Assembly (NCBI GenBank): GCA_013204645.1
Contig: JABMSE010000102.1
Coordinates: forward strand, 1-20,669
Length of the DNA: 20,669 bases
Source of the DNA: Candidatus Saganbacteria bacterium
Lineage (GTDB): Bacteria > Margulisbacteria > WOR-1 > O2-12-FULL-45-9
Reading direction: 5' to 3'
In this document: piece after piece, positions 17,553-19,364 of the stretch
Position numbering within the stretch: position 1 is the first letter of the stretch
How the letters are laid out: every line of letters starts with the position of its first letter
Made by a program: the position numbers and the translations under genes
The notes under the pieces: generated by a model
Database searches by the model: none
Seen by the model: only the letters and a program-made list of their open reading frames with translations
Told to the model about the DNA's origin: nothing

Positions 17553-17587
17553 GCAAGTTCCGCCCCACTTCTTCCGATAATACATAT
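17553..17587 (+). promoter_or_regulatory. Promoter-like motif copy B: GCAAGTT-N15-CGATAATACATAT
   Basis: It sits right after the rseP stop. The motif and the downstream leader of about 125 nt (to 17714) are about 90% identical to copy C and its leader (18863-19031). Confidence 0.5.
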
Positions 17588-17714
17588 GTCTGGGGCAGCA
17601 AGGGCCCCCACCGCCATCTGCAAATGGTAACCCTCGACAGGCGAAAAAATTTAGTGGTCGATCGGGGCAAACCAAAGCAAAATGTGATACAATATAAAAA
17701 ATATGGAGGAGAAA

Positions 17715-17972
17715 ATGAAGAAAATAATTGGATTATTACTAGTTTCAGTTTTCACGGTTAGCTTGCTAGTTAGCGTTGCCTCAGCAGCGTATGACCCTGG
17801 AAAGGATTATGGTTCTTACGACAGCAGCCAGGGAGAGAAATCAGCAAAGTATCCTAAAGGCGGCTTTGGGCCCACTACCACCATTAACCATATGACGGAA
17901 CCACTGGACATAGGCGTAGGCGGCCTAGGAAAAGAAAAAGAAATGAAACAAGCACCGGTGAGGAACTTATAA
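17715..17972 (+). CDS. Small secreted protein 1, 85 aa precursor. The Sec signal peptide is shared with paralog 2. The mature region is Gly-rich.
   Basis: GGAGGAG ribosome-binding site. Signal peptide MKKIIGLLLVSVFTVSLLVSVASA|AYD. The first 30 nt of the CDS are near-identical to 19032-19061. The ORF track starts 12 nt earlier at ATG 17703. Confidence 0.7.
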   Translation: MKKIIGLLLVSVFTVSLLVSVASAAYDPGKDYGSYDSSQGEKSAKYPKGGFGPTTTINHMTEPLDIGVGGLGKEKEMKQAPVRNL

Positions 17973-17995
17973 CTCGCCCTAAGCCGATCCACAAA

Positions 17996-18053
17996 GCGGC
18001 CCTCGATGACCCCTCGACAAAGTCGGGGTAAGCATCGGGGGCTTTTCTTTTGG
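17996..18053 (+). terminator. Conserved nested-hairpin terminator with U-tract CTTTTCTTTT. It is 58/58 identical to 19307-19364.
   Basis: GCGGCCCTCGATGA-CCCCTCGAC-AAA-GTCGGGG-TAAGCATCGGGGG-CTTTTCTTTTGG. An inner hairpin with an AAA loop is nested in an outer helix. Confidence 0.7.
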
Positions 18054-18055
18054 AA

Positions 18056-18083
18056 TTAAATGGGGACAGGTTACTATTTAATT
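18056..18083 (+). repeat. 28-nt repeat R3 (TTAAATGGGGACAGGTTACTATTTAATT)
   Basis: An exact inverted copy lies at 1539-1566. Diverged relatives sharing the GACAGGTT core are at 19371-19394 and, in inverted form, 19493-19516. Confidence 0.7.
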
Positions 18084-18086
18084 TAA

Positions 18087-18108
18087 GGGTGTCGAGATCT
18101 CGACACCC
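18087..18108. repeat. Perfect 22-nt palindrome GGGTGTCGAGA|TCTCGACACCC
   Basis: Seen directly. It contains a central BglII-like AGATCT. It could be a protein-binding site upstream of the ORF6N gene. Confidence 0.6.
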
Positions 18109-18136
18109 CCTGGGGAATTCCATCTCCCCAATGTCC

Positions 18137-18165
18137 TCCGCCTACGGCGGACAATGTCGTTTTTT
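18137..18165 (+). terminator. Weak hairpin plus T-tract (TCCGCC-TAC-GGCGGA...TTTTTT)
   Basis: A 6-bp stem with the T-run 8 nt downstream. This is weak evidence. Confidence 0.25.
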
Positions 18166-18251
18166 AATTGCTTTTATGCCAAAAATTCATAAAATTCGGT
18201 TTTATTGGAATTATTCGCACTCCTGGTAATAACCTTGCTACCCTAGTATGT

Positions 18252-18809
18252 ATGAGCAACTTAATCCCTGTCGAAAGAATAGAAAGCAAGATTTATTTGA
18301 TTCGCGGGCAAAAGGTAATGCTAGACAGAGATCTTGCGAGCTTTTATGGTGTCAAAACAAAAGCATTAAATCAGGCCGTCCAGCGCAACCTAGCCCGATT
18401 TCCAGAAGACTTCATGTTTCAGCTAACGTGGCAAGAAGCCTTCTCTTTAAGGTCACAGTTTGTGACCTTAAACAACCAGCATGATTCACCGCGAAAACCA
18501 AAAGAAACTTCTAAAAGAGGAAAGCATATTAAATACCTACCCTACGTATTTACAGAACTAGGCGGGGCCATGTTGTCCAGTGTTCTACGAAGTCAAAGGG
18601 CCATCGAAATCAATATCATGATCGTGCGAGCATTTGTCCGCCTCAGGGGATTTCTCTCAACCCACAAGAAAATAGCCGAGAAACTAAAAAAACTTGAGAA
18701 AAAGGGCCAAAAGCATGGCGCAGAAATTCAAACAATTTTTAATGTACTTAGAAGGCTTATGTCTCCTTCAGAAAAGCCAGTTAGACACATTGGTTTTCGG
18801 CCTGATTGA
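18252..18809 (+). CDS. ORF6N / KilA-N-like domain DNA-binding protein
   Basis: N-terminus MSNLIPVERIESKIYLIRGQKVMLDRDLASFYGVKTKALNQAVQRNLARFPEDFMFQLT and C-terminus LPYVFTELGGAMLSSVLRSQRAIEINIMIVRAFVRLR both match the ORF6N family pattern. Start chosen at the in-frame ATG at 18252. The ORF track starts at 18168. Confidence 0.7.
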   Translation: MSNLIPVERIESKIYLIRGQKVMLDRDLASFYGVKTKALNQAVQRNLARFPEDFMFQLTWQEAFSLRSQFVTLNNQHDSPRKPKETSKRGKHIKYLPYVFTELGGAMLSSVLRSQRAIEINIMIVRAFVRLRGFLSTHKKIAEKLKKLEKKGQKHGAEIQTIFNVLRRLMSPSEKPVRHIGFRPD

Positions 18810-18862
18810 GCTCTCTAAAGGGGGCACCCCCCATTTGTACAATGAATTTATTCGGGAGGGAT

Positions 18863-18897
18863 GCAAGTTTGGCCCCACTTCTTCCGATAATACATAT
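18863..18897 (+). promoter_or_regulatory. Promoter-like motif copy C: GCAAGTT-N15-CGATAATACATAT
   Basis: Same as copy B, followed by the conserved leader 18898-19031. Confidence 0.5.
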
Positions 18898-19031
18898 GTC
18901 TGGGGCAGCAAGTGCCCCTAGCCATCTGCAAATGGTAAACCTCGACAGGCAAAATAAATCAACGGTCGATCGGGGCAAACCTGGGAAAAGAAAAGGGTTT
19001 CTGGTTCAAAAATAATTAGGAGGAAAACAAA

Positions 19032-19286
19032 ATGAAGAAAATAATTGGATTGCTTTTGGTTTCGATGTTTGTGATGGGATTGTTATCATCTGCATCACTG
19101 GGGCTTCCCGCAGGCATGGACGACGTTCCGGACGACATCGAGGATGGAATTAATGCGATGCAATCGCAAGCAGAGGCCGACGAAATCCTTGACGTTCATA
19201 TGGGAGAAAGCTGGGAACACCAATACTTTCGGAGAATAGGGCCCTCCCCAATCAATCCGCCTAAAAAAGGACAAAAGATGAACTAA
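19032..19286 (+). CDS. Small secreted protein 2, 84 aa precursor. The signal peptide is shared with paralog 1. The mature region is acidic and unrelated to paralog 1.
   Basis: AGGAGGAAAA ribosome-binding site. MKKIIGLLLVSMFVMGLLSSASLG|LPAGMDD. The 5' 30 nt are near-identical to 17715-17744. Confidence 0.7.
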   Translation: MKKIIGLLLVSMFVMGLLSSASLGLPAGMDDVPDDIEDGINAMQSQAEADEILDVHMGESWEHQYFRRIGPSPINPPKKGQKMN

Positions 19287-19306
19287 AGCTCCACAGGTTG
19301 CCCTTC

Positions 19307-19364
19307 GCGGCCCTCGATGACCCCTCGACAAAGTCGGGGTAAGCATCGGGGGCTTTTCTTTTGG
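19307..19364 (+). terminator. Conserved nested-hairpin terminator, second copy
   Basis: Identical to 17996-18053. Confidence 0.7.

Follow-up and report, generated by a model that had tools for sequence, protein, structure and literature searches.

The 20,669-nt stretch of DNA analyzed here (hereafter, the window) makes up one complete contig from a metagenome-assembled genome (MAG) labeled Candidatus Saganbacteria. The phylum, Margulisiibacteriota (formerly WOR-1), has hardly been studied and is the sister group of Cyanobacteria. Between the convergent genes rseP and folD, an insertion of ~2 kb carries two tandem cassettes, each encoding a small, putatively exported peptide, with a gene of the ORF6N/KilA-N type between them. 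The cassettes are nearly identical in their promoters, in most of their leaders, around their start codons, and in their terminators, while the mature parts of the two peptides show no similarity to each other. The features of the insertion are the following, with coordinates referring to the window (5′ UTR, 5′ untranslated region):

17550-19517, no strand assigned: lineage-specific insertion of ~2 kb between convergent rseP and folD, containing both cassettes, the ORF6N gene, and short repeats
17551-18072, + strand: cassette 1 (522 nt)
17551-17587, + strand: putative sigma-28-like promoter of cassette 1, with -35-like element GCAAGTT at 17553-17559, -10-like element TCCGATAA at 17573-17580, and predicted start at ~17588
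17588-17714, + strand: putative 5′ UTR of cassette 1 (~127 nt), conserved over 17588-17675, with a diverged spacer at 17676-17704 and Shine-Dalgarno sequence GGAGG at 17705-17709
17592-17596/17604-17608 (P1), 17613-17617/17624-17628 (P2), and 17632-17637/17662-17667 (P3), + strand: candidate hairpins in the cassette 1 leader (predicted folds)
17715-17972, + strand: peptide 1 gene (85 aa), with signal peptide ~1-24 (MKKIIGLLLVSVFTVSLLVSVASA, cut before AY) and a mature part of ~61 aa that is Gly/Lys/Ser-rich, near neutral, and free of Cys
17996-18053, + strand: intrinsic terminator of cassette 1, made up of a hairpin of two nested stems (outer 11 bp, inner 7 bp) and, after the hairpin, TTTTCTTTT
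18252-18809, + strand: ORF6N/KilA-N-type gene (185 aa), with a possible promoter of its own, TTGCTT-N16-TAAAAT, at ~18169-18196 (read by eye)
18861-19383, + strand: cassette 2 (523 nt)
18861-18897, + strand: putative promoter of cassette 2, with -35-like element GCAAGTT at 18863-18869, -10-like element TCCGATAA at 18883-18890, and predicted start at ~18898
18898-19031, + strand: putative 5′ UTR of cassette 2 (~134 nt), conserved over 18898-18983, with Shine-Dalgarno sequence AGGAGG at 19018-19023
19032-19286, + strand: peptide 2 gene (84 aa), with signal peptide ~1-21 or 1-24 and a mature part of ~60 aa that is acidic and free of Cys
19307-19364, + strand: intrinsic terminator of cassette 2, identical to the cassette 1 copy

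The identity between the cassettes, followed by pairwise alignment, repeat finding, and a sliding identity profile, is a mosaic. A 5′ block of promoter plus leader (17551-17675 vs. 18861-18983) extends over ~125 nt with ~91% identity and one 2-nt indel at 17611-17612, which splits it into a first part that is 95% identical (17551-17608 vs. 18861-18918) and a second that is 89% identical (17613-17673 vs. 18921-18981). Most of the substitutions in this block gather in one 14-nt patch. The ~30 nt that lead from there to the Shine-Dalgarno sequence (17677-17706 by alignment) have diverged and contain indels, and the ribosome-binding region AAAATGAAGAAAATAATTGGATT, which reaches from just upstream of the start codon through 20 bases of coding sequence, is the same in both cassettes. 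Similarity then fades along the signal peptide and lies at ~50%, the background of gapped alignments, over the remaining open reading frame (ORF) and the 3′ UTR, before the two terminators match in 58 of 58 nt, with similarity extending to 18072 and 19383, respectively (77 nt, 94%). Diagnostic 18- to 25-mers occur exactly twice each in the window with 3 mismatches allowed, where 0 to 0.04 occurrences are expected. All features that an earlier note on this DNA, made from the letters alone, had described as shared (promoter-like motif, leader, signal-peptide start, and identical 58-nt terminator) are present at the positions it gave. The uniform divergence over leader, signal peptide, and mature part that it had named as a counterargument was not found, divergence being strongly non-uniform.

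The note had also described the mature parts as wholly different and devoid of Cys, one Gly-rich and neutral and the other acidic, which is borne out by comparison with shuffled sequences and by the charges. At the protein level, z-scores of -0.5 (local alignment) and -0.7 (global alignment) were obtained, and at the DNA level +0.8, i.e., no similarity; mature peptide 1 contains 10 Gly and has a net charge of +1, compared to -7 for mature peptide 2. The signal peptides, in contrast, are related (z = 8-11 vs. shuffles). Read from the translations, both N-termini have the layout of Sec substrates of signal peptidase I, with a Lys-Lys n-region, a hydrophobic core of 18-20 residues, and sites of the form ASA/AY or SSA/SL, and both ORFs are preceded by a strong Shine-Dalgarno sequence at proper spacing. 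Single-sequence AlphaFold2 models show a confident helix over residues 2-21 and 2-25 in the two peptides, followed by low-confidence coil, which fits disorder of the mature parts or a plain lack of information.

The codons of the signal peptides help to date the duplication. Codons 1-6 are identical at every base, including all five degenerate codons (positions 2-6), an agreement with P ~0.017 under codon-usage draws. Over codons 7-20, however, the peptides agree in 9 amino acids (L, L, L, V, S, F, L, L, S), of which only 2 are encoded by the same codon, compared to 2.29 expected from the codon usage of the contig, and residues 7-24 alone still yield z = 4.2 (p = 4e-4 vs. composition-preserving shuffles). 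Since synonymous sites are saturated while amino acids have been kept, we conclude that the ORFs are translated, that the signal peptides are under protein-level selection, and that the duplication is old. It further follows from this saturation that the 91-100% identity of the noncoding blocks is not a leftover of the duplication; judged by the two sequences, selection at the nucleotide level, gene conversion, or both must have maintained it.

Both peptides are orphans. Peptide 1 (NQT29935.1, HQ596_05130) and peptide 2 (NQT29937.1, HQ596_05140) each retrieved only themselves in a word-indexed search of 5.8 billion proteins, and neither matched a model in Pfam, PHROG, NCBIfam, or PADLOC. An exhaustive phmmer search of 1.84 billion representatives with peptide 2 yielded no accepted homolog, the only matches being the peptide itself and a 5756-aa repeat protein. 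The latter was rejected, as its E = 4e-11 is a sum over nine identical repeats, each contributing 27 bits at 28% identity. The peptide 2 gene is identical in three other assemblies. Pfam scans of the neighboring ORFs revealed no export, processing, immunity, modification, or sensor genes in the window. The proposal that a conserved scaffold with exchanged payloads is the hallmark of an effector, bacteriocin, or signaling-peptide family was therefore not upheld, given two copies in one lineage, no homologs, and no accessory genes in the window; a wider search for family members returned no cassette beyond these two from genome, IMG/VR, metagenome, and protein collections.

The promoters of the two cassettes differ at only 2 positions, and transcription is predicted from the spacing of the -10 elements to start at ~17588 and ~18898. 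The sigma-28 consensus -10 is GCCGATAA, located at -15 to -8 (PMC12784957). The cassette -10 element TCCGATAA matches it at 7 of 8 positions, and an AAG-containing -35 element lies 12 nt upstream, so that the promoter resembles those of FliA/SigD/WhiG-type sigma factors, whose consensus spacing is ~11-12 nt; a sigma factor of the extracytoplasmic function (ECF) type would be the alternative. Unlike in typical sigma-28 promoters, the -35 element GCAAGTT is only a partial match to TAAAG(TTT), and the genes downstream are orphans rather than flagellar or chemotaxis genes. Two other genes, a small membrane-protein ORF (near 4493) and the ORF6N gene (near 18169), are preceded by what can be read as a sigma-70-like sequence (TTGCTT-N16/17-TAtAAT), which argues for a distinct class of cassette promoter. 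The motif noticed earlier proved to be present in both cassettes but not specific to them: the window contains 4 copies of GCAAGTT-N15-CGATA where 0.03 are expected, and one mismatch per half adds no further site. The other two sites lie at 4182-4208 (-10 element CCCGATAT) and 6060-6086 (-10 element TACGATAT). The promoter spacer is identical at 11 of 12 positions between the cassettes, whereas the spacers at 4182 and 6060 are unrelated.

As an observation in its own right, the site at 4182 precedes an 87-aa exported orphan (4228-4491) and the site at 6060 an orphan of 313 codons (6148-7089). Before the orphan ORF 13405-13968 stands a looser version, TGAAATTT-N11/12-GTCGATAA followed by AGGAGG (~13346-13384), and every gene behind this promoter class in the contig is an orphan, lacking Pfam and NCBIfam matches.

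At the other end of the cassettes, the cassette 1 terminator folds with -36.7 kcal/mol (z = -3.67), and its U-tract side UUUUCUUUU follows directly after the hairpin. A simple terminator scanner missed the two-stem hairpin owing to its nested shape. To judge from its structure, the terminator should insulate cassette 1 from the ORF6N gene and cassette 2 from the convergent folD. Antisense ORFs that share KRKAPDAYPDFVEGSSRAA were rejected, as they represent the terminator read in reverse.

The cassettes are confined to one lineage. RseP has many relatives, the closest of which is only 74% identical. We compared five related loci or locus groups with RseP identities of 60% (L004), 74% (L022-L024), 74% (L025), 72% (L026), and 71% (L027). 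In every locus fetched from these five relatives, the rseP stop is separated by only 0-200 nt from the stop of convergent folD, with mnmE next, and positions 17550-19517 therefore represent extra DNA specific to the Saganbacteria lineage studied here. Searching the related loci with the insert by blastn gave chance-level short matches only. In the 200-nt rseP-folD spacer of L026, a 27-codon ORF (5135-5218; MPKLKRLLLSFLLVTSCLQISHQTANL) has a strong Shine-Dalgarno sequence and a lipobox-like LVTSC, i.e., a different small exported-peptide gene occupies the same site, and the convergent rseP-folD site may therefore repeatedly tolerate such genes.

With moderate confidence, we interpret the insertion as three independent transcription units, two of which are old tandem paralogs of Sec-exported orphan peptides whose control regions have been maintained. 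Each paralog would form a monocistronic unit that runs from an alternative-sigma promoter through a ~130-nt 5′ UTR with a 5′-proximal hairpin and a strong Shine-Dalgarno sequence to an AXA-type signal peptide and, finally, the exceptionally strong nested-hairpin terminator. One alternative sigma factor would turn on both cassettes together, and the common 5′ UTR and translation-initiation region would place both mRNAs under the same control of stability and translation; since promoter, UTR, and translation-initiation region are shared, both genes should be co-expressed and co-controlled. The pre-proteins (~85 aa) would be exported via Sec, with cleavage after ASA in peptide 1 and after SSA or SAS in peptide 2. 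Two proteins of ~60 aa, different from each other and probably disordered, would thereby reach the periplasm or the medium of this diderm organism. Their coding bodies would have diverged beyond recognition either because they evolved fast or under diversifying selection, or because one of them was replaced. Envelope-associated or interaction-related roles would be in keeping with their orphan status, low complexity, and rapid divergence, but such roles are speculation. The gene of the ORF6N type that separates the cassettes would be an unrelated gene of the mobile-element or defense type, apparently with its own promoter.

The maintenance of the control regions would combine two processes, namely purifying selection on short blocks (the 3′ arm of P3 and the translation-initiation region) and gene conversion between direct repeats 1.3 kb apart (promoter spacer and terminator). 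The 18-nt block at 17658-17675 and the 23-nt start-codon block are flanked by diverged DNA on both sides, and because such islands appear too short for RecA-mediated conversion tracts, selection is favored over conversion for both. Conversely, promoter and terminator function does not need the identity seen in the promoter spacer and the terminator loops, and homogenization between the repeats is therefore favored there; for the promoter spacer, the sequence favors either conversion or a more recent shared ancestry of the block. Probably, selection and gene conversion both contribute. Furthermore, the near-equal lengths of the ORFs (85 and 84 codons) and of the cassettes (522 and 523 nt) favor diverged paralogs over the capture of unrelated payloads.

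Several points weigh against this interpretation. With two copies and no outgroup, selection, conversion, and payload replacement are not rigorously separable, and a true payload swap would likewise leave mature parts without any residual similarity. The 7 differences in the 14-nt loop of P3, within an otherwise near-identical 125-nt block, are awkward for simple recent conversion. Moreover, the -35 element is only partly that of sigma-28 (GCAAG vs. TAAAG), with an ECF-type sigma factor as the alternative, and the copy count covers the 20.7-kb contig, the related loci, and the databases, so that further copies may lie in the rest of the MAG.

The maintained noncoding identity leaves room for a cis function at the RNA or DNA level, and such a function is plausible for parts of the leader, for instance as a 5′-proximal stabilizing hairpin or as a binding site for a protein or small RNA (sRNA). 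A stronger version of this idea, according to which the leader is a new cis-regulatory RNA that binds a ligand, a protein, or an sRNA, or stabilizes the transcript, and thereby controls both mRNAs, is compatible with the interpretation as maintained paralogs, but we consider it rather unlikely. It would account for the length of the 5′ UTRs, predicted at 127-134 nt, while another promoter of the same class lies ~20 nt from its start codon; the gene at 4228, behind this promoter class, has a 5′ UTR of ~15 nt (all starts being predicted). It would also account for short identical blocks that are flanked by diverged DNA despite synonymous saturation, and for a P1 hairpin that begins ~5 nt from the predicted 5′ end. 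All 11 differing alignment columns fall on positions predicted to be unpaired, in loops and junctions (7 of them in one loop) and none in stems, as would be expected of functional hairpins, but this argument is partly circular, as the structure was predicted from the same two sequences. The earlier note had called the leader structured; the three stems that it listed do exist, whereas thermodynamics, Rfam, and covariation lend them no support. Compared to dinucleotide shuffles, folding of the leader is not more stable (z = +0.41 and -0.80 over the conserved 89-91 nt and ~-1.2 over the whole UTR). Rfam 15 contains no match to leader or terminator at gathering thresholds, and relaxing to E <= 5 gave only chance-level hits unrelated to the leader. 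The stems contain 0 compensatory changes, in a comparison of two sequences that cannot show covariation. A covariance model built from the two copies and run with filters off found no further copy in the window or the five related loci. Finally, the promoter spacer is equally conserved, which RNA function leaves unexplained.

Other candidate functions of the leader were considered as well. An upstream ORF (ATG at 17624 and 18932) was rejected, as it lacks a Shine-Dalgarno sequence, differs in length between the cassettes (45 vs. 27 codons), and shows only non-synonymous changes in the variable patch, while its conserved parts are kept at every codon position. Pairing between the 3′ arm of the leader and the 5′ arm of the terminator, noticed by eye, is imperfect and missing from the full-length minimum free energy folds of both mRNAs. 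The C-rich tract that follows P1 is predicted to sequester the Shine-Dalgarno sequence in cassette 1 only.

Alternatively, the conserved 5′ and 3′ blocks could be homology anchors for the exchange or capture of unrelated peptide segments by homologous recombination, comparable to polymorphic loci of secreted peptides, with the two copies being part of a larger, diverse family. The profile of identity offers some encouragement for this unlikely proposal: at the 3′ boundary at 17996, identity jumps from 100% to background; the mature DNA and the 3′ UTR are devoid of residual similarity (z = 0.8); and the flanks are far more alike than saturated synonymous sites permit. Assemblies from other samples also break within the repeats. 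However, the decay through the signal peptide is gradual, with conservation at the amino-acid level, as expected from divergence rather than from a breakpoint, and non-homologous segments of such similar length (ORFs of 85 and 84 codons) are unexpected of unrelated inserts. Neither payload has a homolog that might have served as a donor. There are only two copies, and the exact leader pattern gave 0 matches in genome contigs (185,579 species genomes) and 0 in IMG/VR, as did the terminator pattern in IMG/VR. The metagenome collection contained a single chance match of the leader pattern, in unrelated high-GC DNA, and is a weak negative, as it missed even the known same-species contigs. It is more doubtful still that the ~90-nt 5′ block is an undescribed cis-regulatory RNA that, together with the fixed terminator, serves one Saganbacteria lineage as an "expression chassis" for hypervariable secreted peptides, with more copies elsewhere in the genome or population under one sigma-28-like sigma factor.

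The gene between the cassettes was assigned to ORF6N/KilA-N in the earlier note, and Pfam agrees, with ORF6N (PF10543) matched at 110.1 bits (gathering cutoff 27.8; E = 6.8e-32) over positions 1-86 of 86 of the profile. Three PADLOC models of PDC-S05 match the protein over its full length (PDLC04856: E = 2.6e-56, residues 1-176 vs. profile positions 1-168 of 177), and the anti-repressor PHROG 4792 is matched with E = 1.3e-26. Within the insert, DNA similarity to a phage and a Bacteroides plasmid (~69%) is limited to the segment coding for the ORF6N domain. One representative of PDC-S05, described with a Virulence_RhuM domain, lowered the plating of T7, T5, and T4 in Escherichia coli (bioRxiv 10.1101/2024.09.26.614923). 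By sequence, the gene studied here is a full-length member of the PDC-S05/ORF6N family, while phage protection was shown for that different, RhuM-described representative, and the family has no known link to the flanking peptide genes. In the simplest view, it may be a mobile-element or defense-type gene that landed between the paralogs or arrived together with them. Compared to three same-species contigs (L001-L003), the gene differs at 18321, 18559, and 18565, two of the changes turning FTEQGVAML into FTELGGAML, which represents either a strain variant or a consensus error.

That this gene is instead a DNA-binding regulator or partner of both peptides, in a three-gene bacteriocin, signaling-peptide, or defense module, seems very improbable. 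ORF6N/KilA-N domains do bind DNA, all three genes lie in one lineage-specific insertion, and palindromes in the leader (CCAT...ATGG, CGATCG) could serve as operators. On the other hand, the suggested role of cognate regulator sits poorly with a full-length match to phage anti-repressor and PDC-S05 models, which are single-gene models and occur without such peptides, and nothing links the gene to the peptides. Its apparent sigma-70-like promoter belongs to a different class, and a strong terminator separates it from cassette 1. The peptides have neither a double-glycine leader nor Cys, there is no transporter, peptidase, immunity, or kinase gene nearby, and, since they lack any relatives, there are none beside other ORF6N genes.

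Both types of junction recur in independent same-species contigs, which were assembled from two IMG samples and one SRA run. In L021, rseP is joined to the cassette 1 version of the promoter, and L001-L003 reproduce the order ORF6N, cassette 2, folD. Because independent contigs from three other samples thus contain the junctions of rseP with cassette 1 and of ORF6N with cassette 2 and folD, the arrangement is not an assembly artifact. The contigs from other samples terminate within the cassette repeats, as expected of short-read assembly at a two-copy repeat. It is thus hardly credible that the ORFs are spurious and the repeats non-coding dispersed elements, similar to miniature inverted-repeat transposable elements or repetitive extragenic palindromes, or an artifact: while the peptides are orphans with low-confidence structure predictions, and the genome has other dispersed intergenic repeats besides those in which the other contigs break, the amino acids of the signal peptide were kept through 7 synonymous codon changes, both ORFs combine a well-spaced, strong Shine-Dalgarno sequence with a canonical n-h-c layout, the junctions recur in the independent assemblies, and the 20.7-kb contig holds no further copies.

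The closest architectural analogy to the cassettes is found in Mycoplasma, where the clustered vsp/vpma genes have a highly conserved 5′ UTR and signal-peptide region and mature parts without significant homology (PMC2268961). The vsp/vpma systems (and likewise vlp) thus share with the cassettes the conserved 5′ UTR and signal-peptide region in front of divergent mature parts. However, they encode lipoproteins, which contain internal repeats and an AAKC lipobox, and they have many genes per locus and a single promoter that is moved by the adjacent Xer1 site-specific recombinase. The cassettes, by contrast, comprise two co-oriented genes, each with its own promoter, and identical terminators, their products lack Cys, a lipobox, and repeats, and no recombinase domain was found among the Pfam-scanned ORFs of the contig.

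A conserved leader combined with a hypervariable core is also known from class II bacteriocins and pheromones with double-glycine leaders, and from precursors of ribosomally synthesized and post-translationally modified peptides (RiPPs) such as prochlorosins. Compared by description, these families resemble the cassettes in their conserved N-terminal export or recognition segment, unrelated mature sequences, and small tandem genes. They differ in that the cassettes encode a Sec signal with an AXA-type site rather than a double-glycine or Nif11/NHLP leader, and no Cys. No ATP-binding cassette transporter of the C39 type (C39-ABC), immunity gene, modification enzyme, or two-component system was found among the Pfam-scanned neighboring ORFs. 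A RiPP precursor was accordingly rejected on the Sec-type N-terminus, the lack of Cys, and the lack of a modification enzyme nearby. Membership among bacteriocins, pheromones, or polymorphic toxins was rejected as well, given an ordinary Sec signal, no Cys, no accessory genes, and no relatives; polymorphic toxins and effectors have many members with alternative C-terminal domains and immunity genes, whereas here there are two copies, no homologs, and no immunity-like ORF after either gene. By inspection, the repeats are not integron cassettes (attC), as there is no integrase and there are no RYYYAAC/GTTRRRY core sites, and the repeats include the promoter. A diversity-generating retroelement was excluded by the lack of a reverse transcriptase and by differences that are not confined to adenines.

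The genes around the insertion are housekeeping genes, among which Pfam identifies the following: dxr, an AsmA-family gene, SPFH/Band 7, EF-Tu, VanW, lpxC, a DegT-family aminotransferase, a GFO/IDH/MocA oxidoreductase, rseP, and folD. A fabZ/lpxA fusion and lpxB were named from synteny with relatives, and mnmE via the same-species contig L001. A second lineage-specific insertion of ~1.2 kb (13256-14479) lies between lpxB and the DegT-family aminotransferase gene, which are spaced by 37-54 nt in L022, L025, and L027. It contains two orphan ORFs (13405-13968 and 14038-14436) without a family match and has no Rfam match.

The contig also carries short dispersed repeats, two of which adjoin the cassettes:

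18056-18083, + strand: gene-end repeat of 28 nt, TTAAATGGGGACAGGTTACTATTTAATT, with a perfect inverted copy at 1539-1566 (- strand; blastn E = 5e-10)
19368-19514, no strand assigned: short element of ~147 nt with 22-nt inverted repeats (86% complementary) that carry a GACAGGTTCGACTT variant of the gene-end motif

The two copies of the gene-end motif AATTAAATGGGGACAGGTT, 16.5 kb apart, are identical in 28 of 28 positions, and the 28-mer has 8-nt inverted ends (AATTAAAT...ATTTAATT). Diverged copies lie at ~19368-19389 (+ strand) and 19493-19514 (- strand). All copies stand directly after a stop codon or terminator (of the 161-aa ORF at 1569-2054, cassette 1, cassette 2, and folD), and their orientation with respect to the gene they follow is always the same. 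None of the loci fetched, including those of relatives, contains the exact core GGGGACAGGTT. The element at 19368-19514 contains the hairpin GGGGACGGCCCCC, likely a bidirectional terminator of folD. Elsewhere, a 68-nt direct repeat with the palindrome CCCCTTCTCTTTCTAAGAGAAGGGG (144-211 and 7166-7233, 91% identical) is found once after the dxr stop and once between the 313-codon orphan ORF and a tRNA gene (7293-7365). Repeated terminator-type or gene-end modules beside unrelated genes thus seem to be a habit of this genome. Inverted repeats at 1-110 and 1447-1515 (arms of 23-29 nt, 93-100% complementary) flank dxr, and since the contig begins inside one of them, they probably are another multi-copy element that broke the assembly. 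At the other contig end, inside mnmE (20618-20669), the 13-nt tandem repeat GGTGACTGACACY occurs three times and is followed by an inverted copy; it is identical in L001 and therefore represents real sequence.

Taken by itself, the locus is genuine and has clear boundaries; it comprises two paralogous genes for exported peptides, and is a modest curiosity of one lineage rather than a new system. Its practical value is likewise modest and lies in an improved annotation, a testable candidate regulatory element, and a shortlist of candidate cis-elements from a phylum about which little is known. Where noncoding blocks are identical although synonymous sites are saturated, candidate regulatory elements can be pinpointed without the need for many genomes, and GCAAGTT-N12/13-yCCGATAw is a first candidate consensus for an alternative-sigma promoter in Saganbacteria, tied here to orphan genes. 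If the control blocks are functional, the two cassettes would represent a compact natural case of two unrelated small exported proteins that are expressed under one shared design of promoter, UTR, and terminator.

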